Virus record (IMG/VR): IMGVR_UViG_3300025133_009669
Coordinates: 23,462 to 87,461 of that record
Direction: 5' to 3' (one strand)
Length of the DNA: 64,000 nucleotides
DNA from: a virus
This document shows positions 16,190-62,278 of this stretch, piece after piece (position 1 is the first letter of the stretch; the number at the start of each line of letters is the position of its first letter). A program made the translations under genes and the position numbers. The notes below the pieces were generated by a model. That model was not told the DNA's origin. It worked only from the letters and a program-made list of their open reading frames with translations, and ran no database searches.

Positions 16190-16869
16190 AAATAGTAAAA
16201 AAAGAAGTAACACAATCATTTACAGTAGATATAGAAGTTGAGAATACGCCTGTTTACCAGATGGCAAACGGATGCGTTTCTCACAATACTACTTCACTTA
16301 CACTGGGCACTTCCTCTGGAATTCATGCATGGCATAATGATTTTTACATAAGAAGGCTTCGCGTTGGAAAGAACGAGTCTATCTATTCTTATCTTGAGAA
16401 TAATCATCCAGAGCTTATCGAAGATGAATTCTTTAGACCGCATGATACTGCCGTGATTTCAGTGCCTCAGAAGGCACCCGCAGGAGCTATTACGCGAAGT
16501 GAAACGGCGACTGATCTGCTTGAAAGAGTGAAAAGAATGACAGTTGACTGGGTTAATCCCGGCTATCGAAAGGGTCAAAACACGCATAATGTTTCTGCCA
16601 CAATTACTGTGAAAAATGATGAATGGGATACCGTTGCAGATTGGATGTGGGAAAATAGGGACGTGTATAATGGCCTATCTATTCTTCCGCATTCAGAGCA
16701 TACGTATGTTCAGCCCCCATTCGAAGATTGTACGGAAGAAGTCTACAATGAGATGATGCACTCTCTAAAAGAAGTGAGAATAGAGAGCGTTTTGGAAGAG
16801 ACAGATAATACAGATCTTTCGGGAGAGCTGGCCTGCTCAGGGGGATCGTGTTCGATCTCTTACTTATAG
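16186..16869 (+). CDS. nrdJ: Split-intein IntC (34 aa, 16186-16287) fused to the C-terminal part of class II RNR
   Basis: MKIVKK...TVDIEV...NGCVSHN|TTSLTLGTSSGIH; HNVSATI, YVQPPFE, terminal ACSGGSC. Confidence 0.92.
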   Translation: MKIVKKEVTQSFTVDIEVENTPVYQMANGCVSHNTTSLTLGTSSGIHAWHNDFYIRRLRVGKNESIYSYLENNHPELIEDEFFRPHDTAVISVPQKAPAGAITRSETATDLLERVKRMTVDWVNPGYRKGQNTHNVSATITVKNDEWDTVADWMWENRDVYNGLSILPHSEHTYVQPPFEDCTEEVYNEMMHSLKEVRIESVLEETDNTDLSGELACSGGSCSISYL

Positions 16870-47816: not shown

Positions 47817-48261
47817 GGGGCAAACCCACAACCCAAGGCATATAATTTATACGCAAAAAAGAAAAAGCCCAATTCCAAAAGAAAAAGCACCAATTCCCCC
47901 ACAAAAGTCAAAGAGAAATCTAACAAAAGTTTTCCAATTCCCCCGAAGCAGAAACAAAGATTTTTCTAAGAAGAGTCAAAGCAGATGAAAACCAAAGGAA
48001 AATCCCTCCCAAAATTTTTACGAAGAATACTCCGAAGATCTTCCCGACCCAAAGCAGGCAAAATCAAGCGAAAGAATCCTTTTGTTTTCGGGTGTGTTCT
48101 TTGATAAGATATATTTGAGTACTTGGTTTAGAAAAGACCCTCCAGAATAAGCTATACCTAAGGTTAAATAAAATAACCTACTAGATAAAGAAACTGCTCT
48201 CTCCCTCTCTCTCTCTCTCTTAAGTTTACATACACATAGAAAACAAAAAGATATCTTCTTT

Positions 48262-48435
48262 AAGCCAGAAACTGCTTTCGCGGTAGCTCTGCATATAACC
48301 ACGGCAATCCGCAGCAATCCACAACCATTGTTTTTAAGCGAAAAACAGTTATCACGGTGGCTCTGTATATAACCGCAGCAATCCGCAGCAATCCGCAACC
48401 ATTGTTTTTAAGCTAAAAACTGCTTTCGCGGTGGC
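48262..48435. repeat. About 2.3 copies of a 74-bp tandem repeat with internal GCAATCCGCA sub-repeats
   Basis: Units begin aaactgctttcgcggt/aaacagttatcacggt at 48269, 48343, 48417. Confidence 0.85.
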
Positions 48436-48615
48436 ACGCGGCGTGCCAACACGCAAGGCTCCCAGGGTAACATATAAATATATATTTCTGCGATTGCCCG
48501 ATACGTTGGCACGATTCTCCGGGTGCAAAAAAGTTACGATAAAACAGTCCTACTCTATATCTAAGTGCAAGCGGGGCAAAAGAAACACTGACTCCCCGCA
48601 AGAAAGGCTGAGACA

Positions 48616-49239
48616 ATGGCGAAGAACGCATTTGAGACCGAGGCTTCCTGCATTGCTTTCGAGCAGACCAACGGCGCAGCCCTCGACCCGCGCGACGCCC
48701 ACGGGGCCATCCGGTTGTGGATGGGTGACAGCGCCGACCGCCTGCCGCCCGCGAAGGACGGCATCTGCAAGAAGGGTGGGGTCGACCGCTTGGGCCGGCC
48801 GCTCCAGAAGGGCCGCGGGCACGGCGTGTTCGACATGGTGCTGCCCTGGAAGTCCCCCTGCGGAACCATCGTGGAAATGGTGCCCGTGTCCCTCAAGGGC
48901 AGCAAGGGCAACGGCTACGGCAACCGCGACCTGACGATGTACGACGAGGTAGTTATCGACCACGCCGAGGCGGGCCGCGCCCTCTGGGTCTTCCTGCTCC
49001 GCGAGGAGGCCGGAACCCTCCTCATGCGGCGCGTGGACGCCTCGCGGGTCATCCGCGAGGGCACCGAGGGTCACCACTGGTTCGTCCGGCAGGACAACCG
49101 GAAGGTCGGGGAGCGGGTCTACGAGTACACCCGCCTCCGCATCGAATGGAGCCGGGTCGCGAAGGACGCGGGCCACCTGTTCGCGGACGCGGACTGGACC
49201 CCCTTCCGGGCCAGCCTGGACACCGATCGCCCCTGGTAA
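48616..49239 (+). CDS. GC-rich hypothetical protein, possible PD-(D/E)xK-like fold
   Basis: Strong GC3 bias; downstream of the conserved element; FD...VSLKG is only weakly nuclease-like. Confidence 0.6.
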   Translation: MAKNAFETEASCIAFEQTNGAALDPRDAHGAIRLWMGDSADRLPPAKDGICKKGGVDRLGRPLQKGRGHGVFDMVLPWKSPCGTIVEMVPVSLKGSKGNGYGNRDLTMYDEVVIDHAEAGRALWVFLLREEAGTLLMRRVDASRVIREGTEGHHWFVRQDNRKVGERVYEYTRLRIEWSRVAKDAGHLFADADWTPFRASLDTDRPW

Positions 49240-49262
49240 GGGCAAGTCGGGCACCCCCGAGG

Positions 49263-49294
49263 AGCCCCGGAGCCTTTCGGCTCCGGGGCTTTTT
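49263..49294 (+). terminator. Rho-independent terminator
   Basis: agccccggagcc-tttc-ggctccggggct-tttt. Confidence 0.85.
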
Positions 49295-49844
49295 CGTGTC
49301 AATTTTTTGCCCGGCTGCGTGCGAGTGTACGCAAGGAGTGTGCCAACTTTTCGCAGTAAAGTCTTCTCTTTCGTGCCAGGGCCTCTGGGCAAAAGATTTT
49401 CATGCCAATTTGGCATGATGTGTGCATACGCTCAAATTTCGCAGATTTGTTTTTTTTGTTCCCTAGGGAATAAATTAAACTTTCCGAAGCTCTTTTTTTT
49501 GCCTTGAAATAAACTGGCACATTTCTTGCACATGCACGTATGGTGCCAGTTTATGTACATGCTTTGGCACACTTTATGCAGACGATCCTACGGCTGGCAC
49601 ACTTGGGCAAAAGATTTGCATTTCTAGGCTGGCACGTATGGGCATGTAACTTGCATATGCACAGCGCGTGCCAAGGTGAAATAAAGTTTTCAAAAGAAAA
49701 AGAATAGGTGGCACGCTTCGTGCATCGGACGCACACACGCGCTTGGGCAAAAGCTGGACATAAATATCTCTGCGGAACAGTCTTCCACTATATCTAAGCG
49801 TAAGAGGGAATGACCCCGACTACCACAAAAGAGGTTTCTTGAAA

Positions 49845-50231
49845 ATGGACAATCCCTATGAGGCGCTGCGAAAGGCGCTTTACGTCGAATTCGCAAAGAA
49901 GCTGTTTCCGAAGGGCACCTACGAGGGTCAGCCGGAAGTCTCCAAGATTCAGCTGATCAAGGCTTACCGCGATGCGAAGCCCGAGACAACGCTGCGGGAA
50001 GCCAAGGATGCGGTTGACGCCATGCTGGCCCCGCCGCCCGCCGAGGAGTCGAGGGCGAAGTTCGCAACCTACAGGGTTGAGGCCGGATGGGGACACGAAT
50101 ACCTTGTGGCGTGGACGATGGATTCCGCCATAAAGATGGCGTGGGAAAACTACTGCAAGGCCGAAGACTCGCAGGTCTCCTTCCGGGATTTCCGCATCTT
50201 CGCGAAGGTGGAGCGGGTTCCCTCCCCCTAG
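49845..50231 (+). CDS. Protein with ribosomal bL12 C-terminal-like motif
   Basis: KIQLIKAYRD...TLREAKDAVD resembles bL12 KIxVIKxVR...GLKEAKDLVE. Confidence 0.6.
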   Translation: MDNPYEALRKALYVEFAKKLFPKGTYEGQPEVSKIQLIKAYRDAKPETTLREAKDAVDAMLAPPPAEESRAKFATYRVEAGWGHEYLVAWTMDSAIKMAWENYCKAEDSQVSFRDFRIFAKVERVPSP

Positions 50232-50245
50232 GGAATCTCCCCTTG

Positions 50246-50277
50246 AAATCCCCCGGTCCGAAAGGACCGGGGGATTT
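50246..50277 (+). terminator. GC-rich hairpin terminator
   Basis: aaatcccccggtcc-gaaa-ggaccgggggattt. Confidence 0.8.
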
Positions 50278-50662
50278 GCCGCTTTTAAATGTCAAGTTTT
50301 TGCCCGGGACCCGGGGGGCGGAAGCTGCAAGGCTCGTGCCAAGTCTGGATCCTGCGCAAATTTCTTGCATCCGCCTGGGCAAAAAATTTACAGAGTATAT
50401 GCGTGTGCGTTGGCACGAGACTTGCAAGTGCAAAGTCTGTGCCGGAAGTCTTTTCGCTTCTTGATAAGATATTTCTGGGCAAAAGATTTACACTTCCAAA
50501 TTTGTTTTCGGTTGCTTTGGACTGGCACAAATCGTGCATAAGTGCGTGAGGCTAGTGACTTCGGGCAAAAACTGCACAGAAAAAATTACGATAAAACAGT
50601 CCTCCACTATATCTAAGCGTAAGAGGGAATGACCCCGACTACCACAAAAGAGGTTTCTTACC

Positions 50663-50929
50663 ATGTCCGACCGCATCAGCAACAACGTTTTCGCCTCCAA
50701 CGACTTCTCCTTCGGCCTCGCCTGCGAGCGGGCCGGCATCCCCACCACCGGACGGCAGGCGGGCAAGTACCGTCGCGGGATGGGGCAGGCGTGGGCCTCC
50801 CGCCCGACCGCCGTGGACCTGGGCAAGCTGACGGTGCCGAAGCTCCGCGAGGCGGCCCAGCGGTCGGGCATCGCGGTCCCCTCCCGCGCCCGGAAGGCGG
50901 ACGTCATCGCTGCCCTGCTGGGCGAGTAG
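50663..50929 (+). CDS. Small protein with C-terminal Rho_N/HeH-like domain
   Basis: LGKLTVPKLREAAQRSGI...RKADVIAALL. Confidence 0.65.
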   Translation: MSDRISNNVFASNDFSFGLACERAGIPTTGRQAGKYRRGMGQAWASRPTAVDLGKLTVPKLREAAQRSGIAVPSRARKADVIAALLGE

Positions 50930-51025
50930 CCCTCGCCCCCCTGCCCCCTTGGCTTCGGCCAAGGGGGCTTTGTGGGTGCAAGCTGAAGCTGAGACTTGCA
51001 ATACTTTTGCCCCAGGAGAAATGAA

Positions 51026-51397
51026 ATGCCGACGAGCCCTTACTCTGACTTCATCGGGACGACGATTCTTGACGTGAATCACGGAAAGAATGTTATCTCC
51101 TTCGTGACCGACCGTGGAACCTGGGTGATGCAGCACTGGCAGGATTGCTGCGAGGACGTGTACATCGAGGACGTGAACGGAGACCTCTCCAGCCTCATCG
51201 GCGGGCAAGTCGTCGTCGCGGAGGCACGCTCAAGCGGACTCAACCCGGACGACCCCGAGGCGGAAACCTATGAGGATTTCTTGTGCGTGTGGACCTTCTA
51301 CACGATTCGGACCACGCGCGGGGACGTGACCATTCGTTGGTACGGAGAAAGCAACGGCTATTACGCGGTCGATGTAGACTTCGACCGCGAAGAATAG
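51026..51397 (+). CDS. Conserved acidic phage hypothetical protein
   Basis: QDCCEDVYIEDVNGDL...WTFYTIRT..G.VTIRWYGESNGYY; AGGAG RBS. Confidence 0.75.
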   Translation: MPTSPYSDFIGTTILDVNHGKNVISFVTDRGTWVMQHWQDCCEDVYIEDVNGDLSSLIGGQVVVAEARSSGLNPDDPEAETYEDFLCVWTFYTIRTTRGDVTIRWYGESNGYYAVDVDFDREE

Positions 51398-51679
51398 CGG
51401 CCAACCGAAAGCCTTTTGCCCCGGGAAGCCCCCGGGGCATTTGGTCGCATGTAATGTCAAGTTTTTGCCCGGGGTGCAACTGCGCGCTTGTGCATGCTGG
51501 CACACTTTGTGCATATGGTCACATCTGCTACTGTTCGGGCAAAAGTTTAACATCTTTTTCGGCATAGTTTTTGCACTTGCATTTTTCATGCCAAAGCTTC
51601 GGGCTGATTAATATCCTTGAAAAATTGATTGGCATAGTTTTTGCAGCTCAACCATCGGGGCAAAAACTTGACACAAAAG

Positions 51680-51940
51680 AACAAAAGAGGCCGCCCCTTC
51701 CCGGGGCGGTTTCTGCGTTAGCAGCGAATCTTTTGTTGCGTGCCAGAGTCCAGGCGCCTTGGCACGCTTTTTGTAATCCCTTTTGTCTCGCTCTTTCGTA
51801 GCCTTTGACTTGACAGCGCCGCTTTTTGAATGTGGAACAGGAGGAGTCTAACTCGTTGCAGACTGGCTTACTAGTATTGCCAGCCTATCGTGATAGCCCT
51901 TCGTCGTCCCTTTTGCTTTGCCGTTTGTCTCTTGCTCTCG
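51680..51940 (-). ncRNA. Candidate ~250-nt non-coding RNA
   Basis: Lies between a - strand conserved element (51943-51963) and a - strand terminator (51683-51709); no ATG on that strand; several hairpins. Confidence 0.45.
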
Positions 51941-52197
51941 CCTAGATATAGTGGAGGACTGTTTTGCCGTAATTTTTTTTAGGTTCGGATGGGCAAAAGA
52001 TTTACCTTGCAAGATTTGCGCCAATTAGGGCAATCAAAGTAGATTTGTTTTTGTTAAGATTTTGCCCAGATTAGAAGATCTCCTACAAGGAGATGCTAAA
52101 AAGGATTGGCACGGAATTTGATTCGGGGCTTTGGGCAAAAACTGGACATAAAAATCACTGTGGAACAGTCCTCCACTATATCTAGGCGTAAGAGGGA

Positions 52198-52635
52198 ATG
52201 TCTCCCTCGGAGAAAATGAAAATGTTTGATTCACTTTCGGATGCCCAGGTGGCGTGGCTCGCAAACAAGTTGGCGAAGGAGGCGAAGGAGCGCCGTGCCG
52301 ACCTCGCGCCCGGAGAGTACCAGACGGGGGAAATCTCCCTGACGGTTCCGGGCGGAACGGTCAAGGTCGGTGATGATGGAGACAAGACGCCCACGGTGTC
52401 GGTGCCTCTGCTGTCCGTCCTGACCATCGCCTTGCATCGGGCGGGATTCCAGCGCAAGGGGATTCTGGACCTCGTGGTGGAGGCTGCGACCACGGCAATC
52501 AACGACGGCAATCAGGTCGGGACCGAACTCGATACGACGGCGATGTACGTCGAAAACGAGATGAAGGCCCTCAAGGCTCGGTTTGCCGCCGACCTCCCGC
52601 GAACGTTCGTGCGCGGCAAGGTCACGGTCAAGTAG
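52198..52635 (+). CDS. GC-rich hypothetical protein (true start probably a downstream ATG near 52216)
   Basis: Follows the conserved element; GGAG RBS precedes the internal ATGs. Confidence 0.7.
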   Translation: MSPSEKMKMFDSLSDAQVAWLANKLAKEAKERRADLAPGEYQTGEISLTVPGGTVKVGDDGDKTPTVSVPLLSVLTIALHRAGFQRKGILDLVVEAATTAINDGNQVGTELDTTAMYVENEMKALKARFAADLPRTFVRGKVTVK

Positions 52636-52643
52636 GAGAGAAG

Positions 52644-53177
52644 ATGCAAAAAGACTGTTTCAATTGCAAGAATGACAAGCCTCTTCCGCGAGGAGGGTTT
52701 GCTTGCAGAGAGTCGTCCGATGGTGTGGTCGCTATGTGGCGTATTCGTCACGGGCGGCCCCCGGCTGGCAAGGATTCTCATCGAAAGATGGAGCACTGCC
52801 CCTCGTACAAGGGACACACGCACGGGTGAGGGCTGAGGCGGCTGGAGTTTTTTCAGCCGCCTCTTTCCCCGGGTGTACGTCACTGACTTACCTCAATATT
52901 GCTTTCTTCAAGGAAAAAAATGAAGATTACCCTTTTTTCGTCAGAGCCCTTGCATTTCAGTGAGGAAGATGATGGGTGCGCGCACATCGCCGTGTGTGAT
53001 GGTCCCGTTACGACTGATGTAGATGTTCCTGCGCCCGCCTCCGACGACCTTGGACTGTTCGTAAAGATTCAGTCTTGGTCGGAGTATCTTCTCGGAGACC
53101 CCGACGATTACGGCCATGCGCTTACAGCCTTGCTCCAAGGAAAGAGGGTAAAGGTCACAATCGAAACGGTTGATTAA
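52644..53177 (+). CDS. Two small hypothetical proteins (52644-52829 Cys-rich; ~52920-53177)
   Basis: AGGAG/AAGGA RBSs; same cassette. Confidence 0.55.
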
Positions 53178-53406
53178 CCTTTCGGGCAAAGGTCCGCCCT
53201 TCGGGGCAAAAGATTTACAGAGACAATCTTTTGCCCTGCGCCTGCAAGGACTGTGCCAAGTGTTCATGCACACATACGCCCTTGAAAAATAAGTTGGCAC
53301 GGTTCTTGTAGGGGAGACTCACATAACTTCTTGGGCAAAAGCTGGACATAAATATCTCTGCGGATTAGTCCTCCACTATATCTAGGTGTAAGAAGGAGAA
53401 AAGAAG

Positions 53407-54306
53407 ATGGCAAAGTCGATTCGTGAAACCGAAGTCGAAATCGCGGAAGCTCTCATCGAGGCAATCGAGAATGCCGAGGATGGTGGAAAGTGGGTCATGC
53501 CCTGGGATTCCTCCAATGGAATCCCCACGAACGCCACGACGAATCGCGCCTACAGCGGCGGATTCAATTACTTCGTCCTGATGATGGGCGGTCTGAGGTT
53601 CGGTGACAACCGCTGGGCGGGGGCCTCTCAATGGAAGAAGGCCAAGAACCTCGTCCGAAAGGACGAAAAGGGAACCGGGATTTATTTCCCGCGATTCAAG
53701 TGCGCGAAGTGTCAGGCCCCGGTGGGCTGGGGCAAGAAGTGCAAGAGGGGCCACCCGGTCGTCAAGGCTGCGGACAAGACGTTTTCCGGCTGGGGCTCCA
53801 GCTACGTTTTCAACAATCAGCAGACTCAGAACCCTCTGCCCTCCGCTGAGGCCCGGAACGTGGACCCGAGTGTGGGATTTGAGGCGGCGGCAGAAATCGT
53901 CGCAAAGATGGGCGCAGACATTCGGCACGGTGGAAGCCAAGCCTTCTACAGCGTGAAAAAGGATTACATTCAGCTTCCCGAAGCGGGGGCTTTCAAGGAG
54001 ACTGCGGACTACTGGGCGACGAACCTGCACGAGCACGCACATTGGACCGGAGCAAAGAGCCGTCTGAACCGCGATGGAATCGTGAACTTCACGTCCTTCG
54101 GAACTGCCGACTATGCCTATGAGGAACTGGTGGCGGAAATGGGAAGTGCGTTCGTGTGTAAGCACATCGGCGTCGAGCGAGAAGGCCTGTTCGATAACCA
54201 CGTTGCATACCTCTCCCATTGGAAGAAGAAGCTGCGGGAGGAGCCGGGAGTCGTGCGGAAGGCTGCGAACGAAGCTGGGGCAGTTATGAGGTTTTTGCTC
54301 AAGTAA
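53407..54306 (+). CDS. ardC: ArdC-like antirestriction protein (ssDNA-binding + zincin-like domain)
   Basis: WVMPW, PTNATTNRAYSGGFN, VRKDEKG, VFN, AFYS...DYIQLP, HEHAHWTG, YAYEELVAEMGSAF. Confidence 0.9.
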   Translation: MAKSIRETEVEIAEALIEAIENAEDGGKWVMPWDSSNGIPTNATTNRAYSGGFNYFVLMMGGLRFGDNRWAGASQWKKAKNLVRKDEKGTGIYFPRFKCAKCQAPVGWGKKCKRGHPVVKAADKTFSGWGSSYVFNNQQTQNPLPSAEARNVDPSVGFEAAAEIVAKMGADIRHGGSQAFYSVKKDYIQLPEAGAFKETADYWATNLHEHAHWTGAKSRLNRDGIVNFTSFGTADYAYEELVAEMGSAFVCKHIGVEREGLFDNHVAYLSHWKKKLREEPGVVRKAANEAGAVMRFLLK

Positions 54307-54373
54307 GGGGCTTTGAATCTTTTGCCCGCGTCTCAATAACTTGCAATCACTGAAATTTACAAAGGAGGTATAT

Positions 54374-54968
54374 ATGACTATCTATCAGTACTGGCGTAAA
54401 GTAAGCGTCCTCCTGAAAAGCAACCCTGAACTCCGGCCCGGACAGGCGGCATACAACACGCTGTGCCGGTGCAGGCCGGAGCTTGCAAAGCGGGTTCAAG
54501 GCAGCCCGATGGACCCCTTCTATGAGGAGTTCAAGGGGCAGCGATACTACGCCTTCAAGAAGTACGTCGAAAGGCACTGGTAAGGATATTTCGCGACCTC
54601 CTTATGGGAGAGGTACGCGCGTACACTTGGGAGCGGTCATGAAGTTTCTGCTCAAGCAAGGGATTTTAAAACTTTTGCCCGAGAAGGCAATGGAAGGGAA
54701 TGAAATGAAAGAAACGACTTGCATGGTCATCGGTCAAACGATGAGGGTTTCCCCCTCTGCAAAGGGACCTGTGGTTGCCTTTACTCTGAATCGAGACAGG
54801 GGGTTCAAGCCTCAGGTCATTTTGGCTTCTGAATTTCAGGCCTACATCGACTCGTTGGACGCGCGTGCGACTGAGCTTGGAATTCCTGAGAATGAAAAGG
54901 AAGAGGTGGCCCGATTGCTTCAAAGCACTGTGGGGCGAATCAATCGGGCAGTTGCACGGCTGACCTGA
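54374..54968 (+). CDS. Two small hypothetical proteins (54374-54583; ~54705-54968)
   Basis: AGGAGG RBS before 54374; hairpin gaaaggtgggag/ctcccacctttc after 54968. Confidence 0.55.
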
Positions 54969-55186
54969 GTAACCAAGAAAGGTGGGAGCCTCCCACCTTT
55001 CTTGTGCTCTTAAGTGTCAATTTTTTGCCCCGGAGATACGTGCGTATGCAGAATTCGTGCCAATATCCAGAAAATAAGTTGGCATGATTTTTGCAGGAGA
55101 AATACGCACGCACACTCGGGCAAAAGTTAGACACAAATATCGCTGCGGAACAGTCTTTCACTATATCTAGGTGAAGGAGAGAGAAA

Positions 55187-55351
55187 ATGTTTTCTGTAAT
55201 TTCCCTTTTCGATGGCGGCCCCGGTGGAGTCGGTTATTACGTCCTGACTCCCGAAGGTGCCTTGTCCAAGGTCTTCGACTGCCCGAAGGACGCGGAGATT
55301 TGCTGCGCCCTGTTGAACCTCTCTTTGAACGCCACTCCAATCGAGGAATAA
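55187..55351 (+). CDS. 54-aa protein not in the ORF track
   Basis: Conserved element + AGGAG RBS; MFSVISLFDGGPGGVGYYVLTPEG...TPIEE*. Confidence 0.65.
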   Translation: MFSVISLFDGGPGGVGYYVLTPEGALSKVFDCPKDAEICCALLNLSLNATPIEE

Positions 55352-55573
55352 CCTGGGGCCTGGGGTTCGCCCCAGCCTTTGGGCAAAAATTTTACAAAAA
55401 TAAAGTTGCCAGCCGCAAGGGCTGGACTATATATTCTTAACAACCAAGGATTACGCTTTACTTCTTCCATCCAATTCGAACATGCCGGGCGAGGTATCGA
55501 AAGAACTCATAGGTTCCGATTGAAAATGCCGCGTAAAGAAAAAACTCCAAAGGAGTGCTGAGAACGACGTTCA

Positions 55574-55783
55574 TTAATCTTCCCTTACCTTTTTCCTACA
55601 GGCCGTTTTGCTTCGACGCTTCTTTTCGTCGCCGTGGCTTCCGGCTCCATTTCGGAGAATCATGGCGAGAACAATTTTGTTCCGAGTCTTGACCGTGGGA
55701 CCCTTGCCTTGCATGGCGAGTTTTTCGGCCCGCTTTGCCTGGCGCGCTTTACGGCGACGGGCTGCGGATTTTGACTTCGCCAT
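55574..55783 (-). CDS. Highly basic 69-aa protein
   Basis: Directly downstream of the - strand conserved element and AGGAG RBS. Confidence 0.75.
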   Translation of the reverse strand: MAKSKSAARRRKARQAKRAEKLAMQGKGPTVKTRNKIVLAMILRNGAGSHGDEKKRRSKTACRKKVRED

Positions 55784-56322
55784 TTTCTCTTCTCCTTCTT
55801 ACGCCTAGATATAGTAGAAGACTGTTTAGCCGTGATTTTTTTCCAACTCAGCGGGGCAAAAATCTAACAAATTCTGGGCAAAACCTTAACGGAACCAAAT
55901 TTGCTTCGGTTGCAAATCGAAAATCCAACTCAGCGTAATTTGCATGGTACTTCGGCCAAAAGATTCACATTGGAGCTTGGCATGAAAATTGTATTTGCAA
56001 GAATGATGCCAAGAAAAACCGTGCCAGCTTTCGGTGCGGGAAAAGGATTTCTGACTTGGCATGATTTTTGGCGGAAGATGATTGGCGTTTCGGGCAAAAG
56101 CTGGACATAAAAATCACTGCGGAACAGTCCTCCACTATATCTAAGCGTAGGAAAGAGCAGAGCGGGAAAAGCTGAGTTAGAAAAAAACTACGGCAAAACA
56201 GTCCTGCACTATATTTAGACGAGAGAAGAGACCGGGGCGAACAAGGCACGAAGTTTTTTCGGGCTACCTTGCTCCAAACCATGTCGGCGCGGCATCGACT
56301 TTCAAAAATTGCCGTTGGAGAG

Positions 56323-56797
56323 AATGACCATGACGAACATCTTTGAGACCGAGCACACCGAGAGCCCCCTCCAGACCATCCGAGAGACCATGAGTGTTTC
56401 GACCGATGACAACGGCACCGCCCTGGTGTCCTTCGCGACCAACCGCGGGAAGGGTTCCGGCGCTCAGTCGATGCCCGTTTCGGAGTTCGGAGACTACGTT
56501 TCCGCCCTGGAGGAGATTGCCGCTTCGGGCATCCCCGAGGCTTCCGAGGCCCGTCTGTCGGCGGCTGAGTCGCTGCGCCAGACCGTGAAGCAGGAGGACG
56601 GCATCGTGTCCTTCCGGGTCCGTTCGGGCAAGGGTGCGAAGCCTGCGAAGGTTCCGGCCGGCGACCTGGGCGACGTGGCGAGCCTCCTGCGCTCGACCGT
56701 GGATGCCGTCGAGGCGGCGGGCTTGAAGCTGGCCCCGCCCGCTCCCGAGGCTGACGAGGCTGACGAGGACGAGGGTTCCAACGAGGACAACGAGTAA
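56323..56797 (+). CDS. Protein with internal duplicated domain and acidic tail
   Basis: VSFATNRGKGSGAQSMP / VSFRVRSGKGAKPAKVP repeat; tail EADEADEDEGSNEDNE; hairpin terminator 56809-56835. Confidence 0.75.
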
Positions 56798-56880
56798 TCC
56801 GAACAGGGACGAGGGGGCGCGTGCGCGCCCCCTCGATTCCCGCTGCTAAATGTAAAGTTTTTGCCCGCGGTGGGGCTTGC

Positions 56881-56954
56881 TCTGCGAAAATCATGCCAGA
56901 TAGCTTTCTGTGGTTAAACATATACGCGCGAGCGTCTGGCATGATTTTCGCAGA
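56881..56954. repeat. Perfect 20-bp inverted repeat made of two divergent sigma54-like sites
   Basis: tctgcgaaaatcatgccaga ... tctggcatgattttcgcaga. Confidence 0.85.
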
Positions 56955-57083
56955 GGTTAAGTTTTTGCCCCGCTGAGTTGAGAAAAAATTACGGTAAAAC
57001 GGTCCTCCACTATATCTAGACGTAAGAAGGGCCGGCTAAGGAGAAGTAATGTTTAAGAAGGCTAACGTATGGAAAAGGCGGCG

Positions 57084-57602
57084 ATGACTGTCCGCTACGA
57101 TGGAAACCTCTGGGAGCATTCACGGGTGCGGATTGCCCTCAACCGACGAGCCGCCGCCCTTGCATGGGCGGCTTTAGGGGGCGACCTGCCACCCCTCCAG
57201 CCCTGCGTTGATGAAGTCATCCGATGGCTCTGCCGCGACCTCGACACCATCGCCCGCCTGCTCGCGCACCTACTAGAGTTAGGGCCGTTCGCGGAGACAC
57301 CGTGGCCGAAGGGTTGGTCGGCGCCGATGCTTGTCCTACACAGTGTGTTCCGAGGCGTCGTTCCACCTGACGCGACGTGGGAGCTGCGTACGGGGGCCAA
57401 GATGCGAACCGCAAACAGACTCTTTGCTGATGCGGCATTTGGGACTGGTTACCGCGGTCGCTGTGAACAGAGTCTCGCAGAGGGTGGCTGTCTGCTCGTC
57501 GCGGTACCCGCCAAGTTGCCCGATACCCAAGAGCAGGCGCTTGAGGCCGTGACCGAGGTAGTACGGTGGATGCTGGCGAGTGACAAGGAAAAATCACGGT
57601 AA
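57084..57602 (+). CDS. GC-rich hypothetical protein preceded by a 12-aa leader ORF (57049-57087)
   Basis: MFKKANVWKRRR* overlaps (ATGA) the start of MTVRYDG... Confidence 0.6.
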   Translation: MTVRYDGNLWEHSRVRIALNRRAAALAWAALGGDLPPLQPCVDEVIRWLCRDLDTIARLLAHLLELGPFAETPWPKGWSAPMLVLHSVFRGVVPPDATWELRTGAKMRTANRLFADAAFGTGYRGRCEQSLAEGGCLLVAVPAKLPDTQEQALEAVTEVVRWMLASDKEKSR

Positions 57603-57642
57603 AACGGTCCTCCACTATATCTAGGCGTAAGAAGGAGAGAGA

Positions 57643-57997
57643 ATGGAACTGACTTCGGGCCAGAGCCCCTTTCCGAGCTGGACTCTCTGCGGCGAGATTT
57701 GGAGGACGTGTGCATGAGCGTCTTTGAAGTTTTTGTAAGATGTGACCACTGTGGACGCTTATACAATCAGTCGTGCGTGTGCTACCACTGTGGAAAGGGT
57801 TAAAAATGTTTTCTCCTGATGAAAAGGCCGCCGAAAAGGCGGGCAAAGACGCGCACACAAGCGGAATGAGCAGAGATAGGAATCCGCATCAGCCAAAGAC
57901 AATGCTTTGGATGTGTTGGAATCTTGGTTGGGACCTTTCTCGAAAAAGAGAAATTCAAGCTTTGGAAGGAATTTATCATGGATATTCAGGGCTTTAG
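57643..57997 (+). CDS. Chain of microproteins (57643-57717, 57714-57803 CxxC zinc-finger-like, 57806-57997)
   Basis: Conserved element + AGGAG RBS, then coupled stop/start junctions. Confidence 0.55.
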
Positions 57998-59096
57998 AGA
58001 AGCGGCAGAAGAAGGAATGCTCAAGAGGTCTATTAAGGGGCCTTTTGAGCTTTTCAATTACACTCAAAAGGCAACGGTTGCGGGCGCGTGGACGCCTGTA
58101 ACGATGGAGGCTCGCGGGGTTGTTTTTCAGGACGGTCAAATCGTTTGTCGTCCAATGAGAAAGTTTTTCAATCCGCATGAAACTGGGGCAGGTGAAGTTT
58201 TTGCCCCGAATCTGGCGCTCGTCAAGCTGGACGGAACCCTGATTAACGTCTGGTTCGACTTGAGCGGAAACATGCATGTTTCCACACGCGGAAGCCTTGA
58301 GAACGAATACATCGACGGAGCATGGAAGATTATTCGGGAAAGAAATCTTGAAGAAATGCTCTCTATGCACCATGATGTGACGTGGAGCTTTGAATATACT
58401 TACCCTCAGAGTCGCTTTTCAAATCCCAGCGTAATTCCGCATGACAAGGAGAGGCTTACTCTTTTGAATATGCGTATGCGTGATGGAGAGGAGATAGATG
58501 CCGCTATGATTCCCGAATACAATTCGGTAATCTATGCTGACTCAAGCCATTACTATGACCTAGCTGTGTCGGATAGTGGCGAAGGTTTGGCAGAACGAAT
58601 GGCTGGACTTGCCAAGGTTTTGCCCTGGCGGGATGAGGGATGGGTTTTGTCGGTTTTTGACGAAGGAAGGAATCACCGAATCAAGGTAAAAGGAAATCAG
58701 TATGTTGCAATGCACCGAGTCATTCATGGACTGAGGGGTCGAGCCGTTGCCGATGCTTGGTATGCAGAAATGCAGGAAGAATTGGCAGAAATGCTTTACG
58801 AGCCTCATTCGTCTATTCTCTTGGAGAATTTCTCTGAGTATGACCGTGAGTATGCCCGCGCGCAAGATGTGGTGCACGAATGGGTTTCTGGTTATGCAAA
58901 GATTGCGGACATTGAAAATCGAAAGGACTTTGTAATCCAGGCTCAAAAGGAAATCCCTGAGTATTGGCAGCTTGCTATTACTGAGCAGTTTTCAAATAAG
59001 GAGCCGGATTACAAGCTCTTTGTTGTAAAGAAGATTACGGGAAAGAATCCCAGGGCTTGGAGTCTGCCAACAACAGATGACGTTGCCCCTGAATGA
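57978..59096 (+). CDS. T4 Rnl1-like RNA ligase
   Basis: LFNYT, EARGVVF, KFFN, KLDGT (motif I), STRGS, FEY, EGWVL, RIKVKG. Confidence 0.88.
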   Translation: MDIQGFREAAEEGMLKRSIKGPFELFNYTQKATVAGAWTPVTMEARGVVFQDGQIVCRPMRKFFNPHETGAGEVFAPNLALVKLDGTLINVWFDLSGNMHVSTRGSLENEYIDGAWKIIRERNLEEMLSMHHDVTWSFEYTYPQSRFSNPSVIPHDKERLTLLNMRMRDGEEIDAAMIPEYNSVIYADSSHYYDLAVSDSGEGLAERMAGLAKVLPWRDEGWVLSVFDEGRNHRIKVKGNQYVAMHRVIHGLRGRAVADAWYAEMQEELAEMLYEPHSSILLENFSEYDREYARAQDVVHEWVSGYAKIADIENRKDFVIQAQKEIPEYWQLAITEQFSNKEPDYKLFVVKKITGKNPRAWSLPTTDDVAPE

Positions 59097-59327
59097 TGGA
59101 GTATAATCTGATTCTATAATAAACGCTTTATTATAGAATCTTAATTTAATTGGAACTGAAGATTGGGTGATGGAAGCTTCGGGTCTATCCAAGGGTTCTG
59201 TTATTGATATGGTGAAAGAGTTTAGTGTAAGAAAGCCTAGTCAACTAGAGGCTCCGCTGCCGTTTGACCCTCCAAGGGATCTGTTTCCAAGTGTTCCGGT
59301 CTTCGGAACACTCTCCGAGGACTAATG

Positions 59328-59363
59328 AAAAGGAAGGGCCGAGATATCTCGGCCCTTCCTTTT
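59328..59363. terminator. Perfect 36-bp palindrome, bidirectional terminator-like
   Basis: aaaaggaagggccgagat|atctcggcccttcctttt. Confidence 0.8.
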
Positions 59364-59569
59364 GGGCAAAAACTTCACAGGATCTTCGGGCAAAAACTTA
59401 ACATTAAAGCTTGGCACGCGGCTTGCATTAGCAAGAAGGATGCCAGATAAAAAACCATGCCATGATGGCGGGCAATTTTAGTTACTTCAAGTTGGCACGG
59501 CGCTTGACTGGAGGGCGAGAGGCTTATTGCAATAAAACGTAATACAATCCAGCCCTGTACTATATTAAA

Positions 59570-59872
59570 GTGTCAGCTAGTAAAGAGAAGTCAGGGATGC
59601 CGGAGGTTCAAATGGTTTCCATTGAATTTGAGAAGAATCGATATCAGCTTACTCCTAGCGGAGTTTGGATTGGAACTGGAGGCCCGAATGGTGGGCGTTA
59701 TCCCGGCTTGTATTGTGCCGCTCCGATGGTTATTTGGCCTGAACTGATTTCGGCAGCAATTACTCAGGGCTATGAAAAGTCTGACTTGGCTCGCGAAGTT
59801 CCGAAGAAGGCTGCAAAGTCTTCGGCAAAGAAGGCTTATAAGAAGCCTGCGAATTCAATCTCTATCTTTTAA
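59570..59872 (+). CDS. Hypothetical protein with Lys/Ala-rich tail
   Basis: Downstream of a degenerate conserved element; GGAGG before an internal ATG. Confidence 0.6.
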   Translation: MSASKEKSGMPEVQMVSIEFEKNRYQLTPSGVWIGTGGPNGGRYPGLYCAAPMVIWPELISAAITQGYEKSDLAREVPKKAAKSSAKKAYKKPANSISIF

Positions 59873-59901
59873 TTCTAGAATAATCTTCTCGGAGAAATAA
59901 A

Positions 59902-60129
59902 ATGGCAAAGCGTAATGTTGATGATGCGGTTGAGGCGTTTCTTAATGGCGGAGGAAAGGTGGTTCGCCTTCAGTATGCTTCGGAAAAGGAAGTGAGGAAG
60001 GCAAGTCGAGTGTCTTTTCACAAGGACCGAGCCACTACGGGTTCTGAGGCTTCTAAGCAGTTTCTCAAGAGGCGGGAAGACAAAGAGGCGTCTCTTATCT
60101 TTTCTCGCGAAGACCGTTGGAAGCGATAA
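59902..60129 (+). CDS. Small protein with SutA-like motif
   Basis: AVEAFLNGGGKVVRL resembles the SutA EEFLxRGGKV segment. Confidence 0.55.
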   Translation: MAKRNVDDAVEAFLNGGGKVVRLQYASEKEVRKASRVSFHKDRATTGSEASKQFLKRREDKEASLIFSREDRWKR

Positions 60130-60165
60130 CGTAAGCGTGCGCGTGTTTACATAAGGAGTCTCAAA

Positions 60166-60669
60166 ATGATTAAGTACGAAGTTCATGTTTATCCCAATGG
60201 AACTAAGCATTGGCATCTCAATGGAAAGCTTCACCGAGAAGATGGTCCCGCTATTGAGTATCCCGATGGAACCAAAGAGTGGCGTCTCAATGGAAAGCTT
60301 CACCGAGAAGATGGTCCCGCTTATGAGGGTTCCAATGGAACCAAAGAGTGGTATCTCAATGGAAAGCTTCACCGAGAAGATGGTCCCGCCATTGAGTATA
60401 CCAGCGGAACTAAGAAGTGGCTCCGGAATGGAAGACTTCACCGAGAAGATGGTCCTGCTATTGAGGATGCCAATGGAACCAAAGAGTGGTTCCTCAATGG
60501 AAAGTGTCACCGAGAAGATGGTCCCGCTATTGAGTATTCCAATGGACATAAGGAGTGGCATCTCAATGGAGAGGAATTGACCGAAGCAGAGTTTCGTGCA
60601 AAGCAGAATAGCTGCGAAGGCAAGGTCATTGAAGTCGATGGAAAGAAGTATCGCCTTTCGGCGGTTTAA
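60166..60669 (+). CDS. 23-aa tandem repeat protein (NGKLHREDGPAIE...GTKEW)
   Basis: Five full 69-bp repeats from ~60220; AGGAG RBS. Confidence 0.9.
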   Translation: MIKYEVHVYPNGTKHWHLNGKLHREDGPAIEYPDGTKEWRLNGKLHREDGPAYEGSNGTKEWYLNGKLHREDGPAIEYTSGTKKWLRNGRLHREDGPAIEDANGTKEWFLNGKCHREDGPAIEYSNGHKEWHLNGEELTEAEFRAKQNSCEGKVIEVDGKKYRLSAV

Positions 60670-61166
60670 GGAGAGAGAAGATGAGTAAAATTGATATTAT
60701 TTCAGCGTGCTTGGTGCTTTTGATTGCCTTTTTCGCCTGGGCCATCTCTTTGAATGAGGTGAAAAACCTTCAGCTCAAGAAGATCGCAAGAGATTGCGAG
60801 TCCACACAGGCATTTCGAATCGGAGATTCCGTTTATGACTGCACTTTGCGAAAAGAAGACTAATCTTTAAGAAGAGACCTCCAGAGGCCCCGGGGCTTCT
60901 TTCCTATTTTCCGATAATATCTTCGCCAAATTTTCTTTTCTTGGACAATCATTGGCACGAAGATAATCATGTGAGCCAGAACTCCGTAAAGAAGAAATGC
61001 AGCTAAGGTTCTCTGGTGTAGAATTACAGAAACAATTTCGTTGTTAACCAAATAAAGGCCGACGAATGCTTCCAGCGAAACAAGCACCATAGAAATGAAT
61101 AAAGCTTGAAGAAAAGTTCTTGTCAAGAGTTTGCCCGATATTAATATCGTACTACGGAGGGTTCCG

Positions 61167-61712
61167 ATGAAAGTTATTTTTCTTGATAATGATGGAGTCA
61201 TCTGTTTGCGTAGCAATTGGGGTTCTCGATTTAAGAAGCAAAAGAAGTACAAGGGCGACCTATCGGGGAGAGAGCGTCCTTTTGAAGTCCGAGCTGATAA
61301 CTTTGACAGAAAGGCCGTCAGGGTTCTGAATGAAATCCTAGAAGAAACCGGAGCAGAGATTATTATCTCCTCGGATTGGAGGAGACTTGGATCTCTTGAG
61401 GAGTTGCAAGAATATTATTTGACCCAGGGGATTGTCAAGGCTCCGGTTGGCTTGACGAAGATCTTTTCTAAGGTAAAGATTCCGGATCATTTCCCGTGGA
61501 ATAGAGGGTACTCGTCCGAACAAGAGCGTAGTTTGGAAATTTTGGACTGGCTATCTGATCACCCGGAGATTACACAGTGGGTTGCCGTGGATGATCTTGA
61601 TATGTCTACAAGAAATGGCTGGGGACTGAGCAATTTTGTTCATACTCCAATCGATACAGAGGGAATTAAGCAGACAGGAGTCAAGAAAAAAATTCTTGAC
61701 TCCCTAATTTAG
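61167..61712 (+). CDS. HAD-family phosphatase of the RNA-repair (Swiss-army-knife) type
   Basis: KVIFLDNDGVI, IIISSDWR, R..EILDWL, WVAVDD. Confidence 0.8.
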   Translation: MKVIFLDNDGVICLRSNWGSRFKKQKKYKGDLSGRERPFEVRADNFDRKAVRVLNEILEETGAEIIISSDWRRLGSLEELQEYYLTQGIVKAPVGLTKIFSKVKIPDHFPWNRGYSSEQERSLEILDWLSDHPEITQWVAVDDLDMSTRNGWGLSNFVHTPIDTEGIKQTGVKKKILDSLI

Positions 61713-61869
61713 GAGACGTGATGAAAGAAGAAGATTATGCCCTCCCTGTTCTCATTGGATTGATTGCACTAATCGCCTTGTTGGCCTCGGCTTGCTAGGC
61801 GGGCAAAAAATTCACACTTATATTACAGAAAGAAAAGGTTGCTCAAAACCCCTTCTTTCAGATTACTGT

Positions 61870-62109
61870 TTAGCCAGGAAGCTCTAGGAAGGCATCTCCT
61901 GCAACTTGCAGGGCAAGACCAACGTGACAGGAGGTAGTGTGAGACTTGAAAACACCAGTTGAAGTATAATCATAGACTCGGCTCAAGCCATGCTTTCTTT
62001 CGGCAATCTTTAGCCTATATGAAAAGAGCCTTTCTCCATCGGTTGAAAGGCTCTTGTTTTCGGCGGAGATTCCGCTGAGCCATGCCTTAACTACTTCTTC
62101 ATTTCGCAT
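61870..62109 (-). CDS. Hypothetical protein
   Basis: Downstream of the - strand conserved element at 62126-62146 with AGGAG RBS; LSTDGERLFSY...SHTTSCHV. Confidence 0.75.
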   Translation of the reverse strand: MRNEEVVKAWLSGISAENKSLSTDGERLFSYRLKIAERKHGLSRVYDYTSTGVFKSHTTSCHVGLALQVAGDAFLELPG

Positions 62110-62278
62110 TGAACGCTCCTTTGCCTAGATATAGTGGAGGACCGTTTTGCCGTGATTTTTTTGAGCTTGGGCTGCGGGCAAAAAATTTACGATTATTAAG
62201 AAAAAAGGTAATCCACTTTAGCCCTCCACTATATCAAGGTGGAGAAAGCAAACGGACACCAGAAGACCGGGAGAAGGC

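Follow-up and report, generated by a model that had tools for sequence, protein, structure and literature searches.

The GC-rich island of small gene cassettes at 48400..59600 of the window (the whole 64,000-nt stretch analysed here, DNA of a large marine phage) carries in its spacers a family of short sites, the A sites, that are of the sigma-54 -24/-12 type by every sequence criterion tested, in keeping with the RpoN-consensus identity proposed for them by a first-pass annotation. We consider it about an even chance that these sites represent organised docking or promoter modules for host E-sigma54 rather than a simple sponge. The island itself (GC 0.46-0.56 against about 0.39 elsewhere; GC3 of 0.55-0.96 in its genes up to 57.6 kb) is best explained as a hypervariable set of cassettes that carry small early or anti-defence genes, its cargo including genes for an HeH/Rho_N protein (50663-50929), a DUF7448 protein (51026-51397), an ArdC-like anti-restriction protein (53407-54306) and an RNA ligase (57978-59096).

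Three patterns define the A sites: a strict one, TGGCAY-N5-TTGC, a looser one, TGGCAY-N6-TGC, and a third that is the loosest. The ten or so exact sites claimed in the first-pass annotation are all present, on the plus strand at 49515, 50411, 51630, 55080 and 59412 and on the minus strand at 49331, 50327, 53244, 55997 and 59431, and these are the only strict matches in the entire 87,461-bp contig, all ten falling between 49.3 and 59.5 kb; the same pattern read backwards, as a control, has no match in the contig. Whole-window shuffles average 0.20 strict matches (maximum 2), and none of 100 reaches ten. Spacing is similarly constrained, with ten occurrences of TGGCAY-Nk-TTGC at k=5, three at k=6 and none or one for all remaining k in the range 0-12, and the spacing scan counts 21 matches to TGGCAY-N6-TGC. 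The 4,453 nt of island spacer contain the strict pattern 10 times, the looser 21 times and the loosest 28 times, whereas 500 shuffles of this spacer DNA that preserve dinucleotides average 0.04, 0.10 (maximum 2) and 0.42 (maximum 3); over the 7,032 nt of coding sequence in the island the counts are zero, zero and one, respectively. The near matches with correct spacing reported earlier thus bring the total to 21-28 sites, exact ones included, in 4.45 kb of spacer. In the profile of 31 sites, T at position 0 is followed by GGCA, C/T at 5, G/A at 6, a T/C-rich run at 8-10 and T11 T12 G13 C14 A15, and the N5 spacer varies freely, as had been claimed. The low-information positions coincide with those of the published motif from E. 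coli, in which positions 3, 4 and 14-16 are important and 1, 8-10 and 12 are not (PMC4591121). Given that all but two genes lie on the plus strand, the division of the 28 mapped intergenic sites into 16 plus and 12 minus makes the earlier estimate that about half point away from genes a fair one, and the sites are, as was also proposed, far too numerous and too often wrongly oriented for ordinary single promoters.

The idea of an unordered saturation of sites did not survive, for the A sites stand in fixed registers with two further elements and with terminators, and in rigid pairs. Cassette flanks follow a three-part grammar of A site, GGGCAAAA B box and promoter-like P element. The B-box pattern, GGGCAAAA-nn-T-nn-ACA, has 29 fits spanning 49298..62190, on the plus strand at 49745, 50377, 50477, 50563, 51537, 51658, 51991, 52133, 53204, 53333, 55118, 55381, 55876, 55954, 56092, 59364, 59388, 61801 and 62176 and on the minus strand at 49298, 50291, 51456, 52053, 54313, 54666, 55016, 56852, 56956 and 58192; GGGCAAAA itself has 34 copies in the island and five outside. 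The P elements, CAGTCCTCCACTATATCTAGG-like promoter cores, correspond to the separate conserved upstream element that had been described. A scan allowing at most 6 mismatches gave 17 hits, two of them outside the island with 5-6 mismatches; the 15 copies kept lie between 48545 and 62239, at 48545, 49778, 50597, 52166, 53366, 55151, 56125, 56199, 57000, 57605, 59550 and 62219 on the plus strand and at 51961, 55824 and 62144 on the minus strand.

A sense TGGCAY lies 38-74 nt upstream of nine of the 12 plus-strand P elements, with a B box between the two in six of the nine and a B-to-P gap of 17 nt in five of those six. The A site at 49709..49724 is followed after 20 nt by the B box at 49745, after a further 17 nt by P 49778 and then by the gene at 49845; that at 50523..50538 is followed after 24 nt by B 50563, after 18 nt by P 50597 and then by the gene at 50663, and these two cassettes have an identical leader after P. 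The same order recurs at 52107..52122 (B 52133, P 52166, gene 52198), 53295..53310 (B 53333, P 53366, the ArdC-like gene at 53407), 55080..55095 (exact consensus; B 55118, P 55151, gene 55187) and 56057..56072 (B 56092, P 56125), while sense sites without a listed B box precede P 48545 by 38 nt (48507..48522), P 57000 by 63 nt (56937..56952, TCGCA) and the degenerate P 59550 by 57 nt (59493..59508). Five of these nine gene-proximal copies lack the -12 GC that sigma-54 needs, among the nine being the perfect -24 half without it at 48507 (TGGCACGATTCTCCGG), degraded -12 halves at 52107 (TTGAT), 56057 (TTGGC) and 59493 (TTGAC), and TTGTA at 53295. Where a copy is best placed to serve a gene, it is thus at its poorest as a sigma-54 site, which counts against the preferred reading of the array as E-sigma54 modules.

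Mirrored A sites stand behind terminators. GC-rich stem-loops with T runs, located by a simple hairpin scan, lie 3' of cassette genes at 49263-49290, 50247-50276, 50943-50968, 51417-51439, 54977-55001 and 59332-59359 on the plus strand, with another scored on the minus strand at 56810-56835, and an inverted B box follows about 10-16 nt past each cassette stem-loop. Minus-strand A sites are found behind the terminator and inverted B box of the genes at 48616-49239 (49330..49345, exact) and 49845-50231 (50326..50341, exact), and likewise behind B 55016 (55047..55062, CTGCA) and B 56852 (56883..56898, TCGCA); a further exact minus-strand site (53243..53258) is back to back with the sense site at 53295. 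The remaining single sites are on the plus strand, at 49411..49426 (GTGCA at -12), 49565..49580 (ATGCA), 51498..51513 (GTGCA, then B 51537), 51630..51645 (exact, then B 51658) and 51760..51775 (TTGTA).

The convergent pairs that had been noticed number six, each with exactly 2 nt between its 16-mers: 49515..49548 (plus half 49515-49530, minus half 49533-49548), 49640..49673 (a GGGCAT-type plus half at 49640-49655 and a minus site at 49658-49673), 50411..50444 (50411-50426 and a CGGCAC-type minus half at 50429-50444, with B 50377 upstream), 51560..51593 (a CGGCAT-type plus half at 51560-51575 and 51578-51593, the B 16-mer at 51537-51552 ending 7 nt upstream), 55978..56011 (55978-55993, TTGTA, and the exact 55996-56011, with a B-like box at 55954, 8 nt upstream) and 59412..59445 (59412-59427 and 59430-59445, core TTGCATTAGCAA, with B 59388, 8 nt upstream). 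The 2-nt gap is kept in four pairs of a relative, G001, and in 64 unique contexts elsewhere. At the island start the overlap is complete (gap -15), where the palindrome TGGCACGCGGCGTGCCA (48432..48448) can be read as a -24/-12 site from either strand; it is almost unchanged from this phage to G001, while its flanks diverge. Across 148 unique pairs the N5 spacers of the two halves are complementary at 1.45 of their 5 positions, where 1.25 would be expected, so the facing pairs are not hairpins. Because sigma-54 transcripts start 19 bp downstream of the motif centre (PMC4591121), each half is predicted to start RNA at about position 27-28 of the 34-mer, within its partner, and a pair with this geometry would fire outward both ways with no collision, as a compact two-way promoter serving one polymerase at a time.

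This overlap bears directly on the possibility that the array is a sponge or decoy that soaks up E-sigma54, shutting the host regulon or storing core polymerase without productive transcription. The sheer number of sites invites such a view, with some 30 near-consensus copies in 4.5 kb against 135 mapped in all E. coli, where E-sigma54 can sit inactive on DNA (PMC4591121); about 12 of the 28 point away from genes, no activator gene is present, and copy number would presumably climb with phage replication. Halves that overlap add no extra capacity, however, and half of the paired sites would be wasted if capacity were the goal, so that a pure sponge fits poorly with the rigid gap; moreover, the sites are in fixed register with B and P rather than merely dense, the gene-proximal copies are weakened at -12 rather than maximised, and the one to three pairs of small phages, or the one pair and one single site in the scanned 12.4-kb locus of the cultured Pseudomonas phage Ab02, are too few to titrate. 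A sponge is consequently improbable, and nothing was found that favours this, or the insulator, shielding or DNA-pulling roles also suggested in the first-pass annotation, over a promoter or docking role.

Within the E-sigma54 module reading, the A sites would be recognition sites built into the repeated control modules of the island in three contexts: sense copies 38-74 nt before P, usually with a B box between; mirrored copies behind a cassette terminator and inverted B box; and facing pairs with a B box 7-8 nt ahead, which would represent neither a head-on collision nor two sponge sites. Since the phage DNA at hand has no gene for an RNA polymerase, sigma-54 or activator ATPase (no match to Sigma54_DBD, Sigma54_activat or the RNA polymerase large subunit in this phage, G001 or another relative, G002, the two relatives carrying sigma-70-family genes), the sites most likely capture host E-sigma54. 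Binding would most likely hold it on incoming DNA as stable closed complexes, in line with the transcriptionally inactive state in which E-sigma54 binds DNA (PMC4591121). Such complexes would fire outward once opened, whether by a host activator that acts from solution or by a phage factor at the B box. That an activator gene is absent from the phage DNA at hand counts against this reading, as does the lack of a roadblock effect of the bound enzyme in E. coli (PMC4591121).

The A and B parts of the grammar extend beyond this phage, to G001 and to metagenome loci. In G001, whose counterpart of the first island gene shares only 37% identity, 14 of 15 exact A sites lie in the GC-rich island, and A and B occur together in 46 metagenome loci (240.8 kb with 296 A sites, 335 B boxes and 93 facing pairs); identity to this island stays below 95% in all of them. 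G002 likewise has an island of this type, carrying B boxes and a P element of its own, but only two exact A sites in 317 kb; A sites are therefore dispensable for the cassette system, a further point against E-sigma54 modules. Cargo is almost wholly different among the three phages while the spacer grammar is common to them, an observation that, together with the identical leader at two cassettes and the shuffling driven by promoter-plus-stem-loop repeats in T4-type phages (PMC2839356), could suggest that A-B(-P) units are only homology patches for cassette swaps, with a sigma-54 look and no reader. Homology would keep whole blocks, however, whereas only motif positions are kept here and N5 is free, the mark of selection by a sequence-specific reader, and the motif is retained across phages too diverged to recombine. 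Homology patches alone are thus very unlikely, although shuffling and protein binding are not mutually exclusive.

The identity of that reader is a separate question. Facing pairs occur in at least 119 viral stretches, and in their TTGCATTAGCAA form in 65 viral stretches against a single match in 185,579 prokaryote genomes, the latter search using this narrower core pattern. The pair is consequently not a bacterial sigma-54 arrangement, which again counts against E-sigma54 modules. This near virus-specificity would suit a different DNA-binding protein, whether of the phage (perhaps virion-carried or very early) or of the host, that reads T(G/T)GCA pentamers spaced by one helical turn, a dimer occupying a single site and a dimer of dimers the 34-bp pair, with the sigma-54 likeness being a coincidence of pentamer and spacing. 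In the 16-mer, TGGCA and TTGCA stand as a direct repeat at a distance of 11 bp. The pair is palindromic at the level of motifs about its rigid 2-nt centre and can be read as four such pentamers, two direct and two inverted, as would suit a tetrameric protein. Tandem arrays with a period of 54 bp, present in some small phages beside TGTGGATAA, a DnaA-box-like sequence, look iteron-like. Two small genes, encoding a very basic 69-aa product (55574-55783) and a 79-aa product (61870-62109), are shared by A-bearing G001 and this phage and absent from G002, but neither product has a family match. The minor base preferences (a T ahead of GG, C/T and then G/A behind GGCA, a T/C-rich stretch ahead of TTGC, an A behind GC) are also sigma-54-like. 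P differs among this phage, G001 and G002, as a phage-specific element may between close relatives, whereas A is unchanged, and constancy beside a changing P would fit a reader of universal specificity. The A motif is identical across jumbo phages, 40-55-kb marine phages and 93-kb Pseudomonas myoviruses, for which no common candidate binder was found within the loci compared; among 66 pair-bearing loci the large terminase is the only widely common protein family (27 loci). A different protein is, on balance, rather unlikely.

The facing pair is conserved in cultured Pseudomonas phages, Ab02 among those that carry it. In P. putida phage Kassivere and P. plecoglossicida phage SYP the facing pair, with differing N5, is the sole still-alignable part of a 600-nt gap. 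A pair also lies within the early region of PAK_P4 (region as delimited in PMC5563952), and that phage's GenBank record has a leftward RNA, based on RNA-seq, whose 5' end falls inside it; the host, P. aeruginosa, has RpoN (PMC5626770). The available part of the PAK_P3 start-site study gives 75 start sites, 78.7% of them sigma-70-like, and names no sigma-54 class, which weighs against the E-sigma54 reading. Literature searches gave no paper describing a sigma-54-site array in a phage, as the first-pass annotation had supposed, and only single sigma-54 phage promoters such as that of YuA.

In T4 middle promoters, the MotA box replaces the -35 element. By analogy only, the B box is likewise phage-specific and set a fixed short distance upstream of a promoter core, although, unlike the MotA box, it stands ahead of two kinds of core, A and P. 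With bacterial sigma-54 promoters and inactive E. coli sites the array shares the GG-N10-GC motif, its strict spacing and secondary base preferences, and polymerase could sit on it without transcribing; in contrast to the 135 sites that ChIP-seq mapped in 4.6 Mb of E. coli, most of them inside genes, the phage sites are dense and all intergenic (PMC4591121). Bacterial promoters also differ from the phage array in that it has no activator or enhancer in view and does have 2-nt facing pairs, virtually absent from prokaryote genomes. YuA is similarly a lytic phage without its own polymerase that uses a host sigma-54-type promoter (Ceyssens et al. 2008; start site confirmed by ONT-cappable-seq, PMC10914365), but the available account assigns it one such promoter, P015, and describes no arrays, pairs or cassette grammar. 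Comparable in plan are the PeSL regions of T4-type phages (Arbiol et al. 2010, PMC2839356), hyperplastic regions of small non-essential genes with repeated promoter-plus-terminator bounds and relative-specific cargo. Mini-circles and exchange events are features of the PeSL system. PeSL promoters are strong and sigma-70-like (PMC2839356), whereas the island combines three elements, A, B and P, none of sigma-70 consensus and one of them sigma-54-like.

All ten exact TGGCAY-N5-TTGC sites of the whole contig fall at 49.3-59.5 kb of the window, where the first-pass annotation had placed about ten; shuffles give 0.2. These A sites have the form of a sigma-54 -24/-12 element: a scan of TGGCAY-Nk-TTGC finds enrichment at k=5 only (10 sites vs 0-3 at other k), with GG and GC exactly the 10 nt apart that characterise sigma-54 sites. 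In the 4,453 nt of island spacer, TGGCAY-N6-TGC occurs 21 times against 0.10 in dinucleotide-preserving shuffles, and a looser form of the pattern 28 times against 0.42, so that the proposed excess over shuffled controls is borne out; the coding DNA of the island (7,032 nt) has none of the former and one of the latter. The sites occupy 13 of the 16 island spacers, over 11 kb. A profile of 31 sites reads T, GGCA, C/T, G/A, a T/C-rich run, TTGC and A, with a spacer nearly devoid of information; C14 is present in 27 of the 31, and G1, G2 and G13 are invariant through the anchoring of the profile. The sigma-54 consensus is written YTGGCACGrNNNTTGCW. Set against the positions that an E. coli ChIP-seq study names as important or unimportant (PMC4591121), the profile agrees with the extended consensus around the core. 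A role of the modules in recombination only would leave unexplained why motif positions are conserved while spacers are free, and is most improbable. Nor does the spread of the sites over so many spacers of the window fit the iterons of a replication origin, for which tandem initiator sites clustered at one locus by an unwinding region or DnaA boxes would be expected.

The A sites share their spacers with two further motifs in a strict grammar. The B box is GGGCAAAA-nn-T(T/G)nACA, and GGGCAAAA is counted 34 times in the island and five times in the remaining 76 kb of the contig; P is a promoter-like core of ~21-40 nt (CAGTCCTCCACTATATCTAGG), in 15 copies on both strands, immediately 5' of genes. 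The module order is A(+), 10-24 nt, B(+), 17 nt, P, gene, stem-loop, ~10-16 nt, B(-), 16-20 nt, A(-), with the B box at about -50 to -35 relative to A cores and P cores alike. Given that a sense TGGCAY lies 38-74 nt 5' of P in 9 of 12 plus-strand P elements, roughly half of the A sites are well placed for genes, and the -12 GC is absent from five of these nine gene-proximal sites. The remaining copies are mirrored 3' of terminators or lie in facing pairs, and the earlier remark that about half point away from the nearest gene holds (~12 of 28 face away from genes). The B box ends in a TTGACA-like sequence, yet by eye no -10-like hexamer was seen 16-18 nt downstream in any of its contexts, and a sigma-70 reading was rejected; the Bacteroidetes-type -33/-7 promoter fits loosely to the P of G001 and not to those of G000 and G002 (G000 being the present contig and the others large related viral contigs); and a T7-type reading of P finds no single-subunit polymerase match in the contig, in a search that was likewise blank in every control genome and is therefore uninformative.

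Several local features accompany this grammar. The cassettes at 49778-49840 and 50597-50660 have an identical ~40-nt leader after P (CGTAAGAGGGAATGACCCCGACTACCACAAAAGAGGTTTCTT) followed by different genes, a trace of module duplication or exchange. On the minus strand at 51680-51963, a perfect P (51941-51961) heads ~250 nt with no obvious ORF, up to a stem-loop at 51691-51709; Rfam has no match anywhere in the window, this stretch included. Tandem P elements 74 nt apart stand at 56125-56219, upstream of gene 56324-56797. Joints in contigs from other sequencing runs (e.g. 50499 to 59447; 50602 back to 49784) lie inside repeated modules, with short sides or overlaps and weak support.

The convergent pairs, first described as 2-3 bp apart, number six in the window with exactly 2 nt between the 16-mers, and a fully overlapped A palindrome is found once, at the island start. 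Four of the six have a B or B-like box 7-8 nt upstream. In E. coli the sigma-54 start point lies 19 bp downstream of the motif centre (PMC4591121), and the predicted starts in a 34-bp pair are at about position 27-28 for the plus half and 7-8 for the minus half; by this geometry each start would lie inside the partner half and both RNAs would run outward. Under sigma-54 geometry, the facing pair would then be a compact two-way promoter with mutually exclusive halves; on this view it sets up no collision and does not amount to two independent sponge sites. The density of sites fits a pure sigma-54 sponge, one of the roles first proposed for the array, but the overlapping pairs, the fixed registers and the existence of phages with a single pair do not, and we consider a sponge very unlikely. 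Hairpins or cruciforms are not the point of the pairs either, because complementarity between the N5 spacers, taken over 148 unique pairs, does not rise above chance (1.45 of 5 vs 1.25).

The island belongs to a much larger genome. The contig (87,461 bp, IMG/VR viral, CheckV completeness 26%), of which the window is the final 64 kb, also codes for a topoisomerase with an intein, DnaB, PrkA, SpoVR, a split ribonucleotide reductase and a CCA/poly(A) polymerase-like protein. Given that its nearest PrkA relatives are on metagenome contigs of 200-420 kb and its own PrkA sequence is recorded on a 309-kb contig, it is a jumbo phage. LAGLIDADG inteins sit inside the topoisomerase and SpoVR genes, and the split ribonucleotide reductase has intein-like ends (window 24916-28500, 11012-13621, 14492-16869). 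Across ~48.4-59.6 kb GC rises from ~0.39 to 0.46-0.56, and the genes are small, mostly without family and of GC3 0.55-0.96; the cargo includes an ArdC-like anti-restriction protein, DUF7448, a HeH/Rho_N protein and an RNA ligase. Against ~39% GC for the phage, the early island (window 48400-57600) is GC-rich, with GC3 reaching 0.96; the islands of G001 and G002 are alike in this, which reflects either a codon match to a high-GC host or some other constraint on composition. Just upstream, at 48189-48435, three direct repeats of 74-nt period (48259, 48333, 48407) each end CGCGGT(A/G)GC, the third running into the island-opening palindrome, and a (CT)n run lies at ~48200-48215; possible roles for this region are those of a boundary, an origin or a packaging element. 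The island is present in sequencing runs labelled marine metagenome, with no RNA run among those listed.

Conservation in related phages, which had been named as a check, was found for A and B. Homologues of the first island gene led to G001 (223 kb, 67% complete) and G002 (317 kb, 94% complete). Between G001 and G000 that gene has only 37% identity, yet the G001 island opens with the palindrome of G000, alike at 28 of 29 bases, and an equal GC jump. In G001 exact A sites number 15 (14 inside 18 kb) and B boxes 46; its P is unlike that of G000, and its modules have the order B, 7-8 nt, A or pair, B, ~6 nt, P. G002 has 38 B boxes, a third type of P and two exact A sites only. Outside the island, 41 of 113 G000 ORFs are common to both relatives; inside it, nearly all cargo differs among the three and that of G000 is mostly unique. 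A composite search for a B box plus facing pair yielded 46 more metagenome loci; their 240.8 kb contain 93 facing pairs, 296 A sites and 335 B boxes, and no locus is a close sequence match to the G000 island. The P of G001 is present in 22 of these 46 loci and that of G000 in none. A and B are thus kept over a wide clade while P turns over. No relatives of G000 were reached by megablast, by P tag or by RNA ligase; a gapped B..P tag gave 27 single matches, all chance, and the island-start palindrome tag matches only G001 and a contig of its sister sample. Among cultured marine relatives, no arrays were found in HMO-2011 (bases 5300-55282) or CRP-345 (4800-54718), whose unscanned ends could hold sites, nor in CRP-5 or HTVC033P (1-50000 of 53075, the unscanned end of which could also hold sites). 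SAR11, the host of HTVC033P, to our knowledge has no rpoN.

The facing pair itself extends well beyond this lineage. With the core TTGCATTAGCAA it is found in 65 viral contig stretches, and in generalised form in at least 119; the same core has one match in prokaryotes (185,579 species, one genome each). Carriers include contigs weakly resembling roseophages and HMO-2011-type phages, and the large terminase is the only family widely common to 66 pair-bearing loci. One stretch matches Pseudomonas phage vB_PaeM_C2-10_Ab02 at 100% identity, its locus matching 166 cultured Pseudomonas phage records, and there the pair lies in a gene-free gap of 620 nt. Iteron-like direct repeats (GGACAGATTTTTAGG... 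and GTTAGCA...) are also present in this gap (L214:1060-1300 = Ab02 80560-80800), which might serve as an origin or a hub of control. The distant phages Kassivere (of P. putida) and SYP (of P. plecoglossicida) are alignable only over ~120-140 nt around the pair, and both keep it with a different N5. In the PAK_P4 record, an RNA-seq-based leftward RNA has its 5' end inside the pair, adjoining a sigma-70-like promoter, and this pair sits in the early region (PMC5563952). In PAK_P3, the homologous gap is occupied by two strong back-to-back sites; the available text of the start-site paper names no sigma-54 class for that phage (PMC10914365). The host of these cultured phages, Pseudomonas, has RpoN (PMC5626770). 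Directly 3' of the pair, a pyrimidine-rich ~75 nt is kept in three diverged Pseudomonas phages (L217:648-720 = PAK_P4; L218; L219); a structured RNA there was rejected, given a weak consensus fold (-6.2 kcal/mol, 1 compensatory pair) and no Rfam match. Other arrangements also occur. Small viral contigs (L059, L070, L097, L099, L050, L093, L094, L100) have two or three tandem facing pairs of 54-bp period flanked by TGTGGATAA or TATTCACAA, which we take to be DnaA-box-like, and many of the pairs are near contig ends; tandem arrays beside TGTGGATAA are a feature of those small contigs and not of the window. L230 and L244 have at least 20 A sites each, mostly back to back with a ~9-nt gap, a geometry that differs from the facing pairs of the window.

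Sigma-54 is the sole bacterial sigma factor needing an ATP-driven activator. Profile searches of G000, G001 and G002 found no Sigma54_DBD, no activator ATPase (Sigma54_activat) above cut-off and no polymerase large-subunit domain; sigma-70-family genes are present in G001 and G002. Because A stays constant in very different phages as lineage elements change, the simplest reader for it is a host factor of universal specificity, for which sigma-54 is the obvious choice. The sigma-54 holoenzyme (E-sigma54) requires an activator (PMC3844500) and can occupy DNA without firing (PMC4591121), and a sigma-54-like promoter has been confirmed in phage YuA (PMC10914365). Taken with universal specificity, this parking and this precedent favour A sites as organised putative E-sigma54 docking or promoter modules, a reading for which we hold belief and doubt about evenly balanced. 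The main rival is another protein that reads the four T(G/T)GCA pentamers of a pair, in keeping with a pair that bacteria all but lack, with -12 halves that are weak in gene-proximal copies and with the lack of A sites in G002; set against the constancy of A, such a protein seems rather unlikely. A search for an A-site binder, by phyletic comparison of the ORFs of the three contigs with island rows checked against a curated gene list, yielded two small unannotated minus-strand cassette genes, 55574-55783 (-) and 61870-62109 (-), shared with A-bearing G001 and not with G002. Neither product has a family match, and one of the two is 69 aa and very basic.

Within E-sigma54 docking, a more specific and quite unlikely possibility is that A sites serve as polymerase-capture pads and not as promoters of the usual kind. 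E-sigma54 is the only host holoenzyme to park stably without firing; through it, phage DNA on entry would have host core polymerase pre-loaded beside every early cassette, in either direction at facing pairs. Release or transfer of the polymerase would then fall to a phage factor on the neighbouring B box, and an ATPase bound at an enhancer would not be needed. If true, such use of sigma-54 would be peculiar to viruses and independent of enhancers, and common to the facing-pair elements on at least 119 viral contigs, cultured Pseudomonas phages included. More broadly, sigma-54-type sites in one rigid arrangement, specific to viruses, turn up again and again in early regions across many unrelated phages, which suggests an undescribed general way of engaging host polymerase. 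Given that cultured Pseudomonas carriers already have transcriptome data, whether the pair is a promoter, a parking site, a decoy or the target of another protein is answerable by ordinary experiments. The A-B-P grammar is, further, a practical marker delimiting early, anti-defence-rich, hypervariable islands in uncultured jumbo phages.

Phage use of sigma-54 is known to us only through isolated promoters. The impression that no described phage has such an array is upheld by a literature search, which found no paper on phage sigma-54 arrays, pairs or decoys; the phage literature found treats single promoters only, as in YuA (PMC10914365). The search also found the PeSL concept (PMC2839356), in which repeated promoter and stem-loop modules bound small genes in a hypervariable region, as the 15 P elements and 3' stem-loops do here. 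However, the PeSL promoter is a strong sigma-70-like early one, whereas by eye neither P nor B has a -35/-10 pair at 16-18 nt. New in comparison are a grammar of three motifs in rigid register, the reading of the facing pair as firing outward, evidence for the persistence of A and B through the turnover of P, and cultured Pseudomonas phages in which the question is testable.
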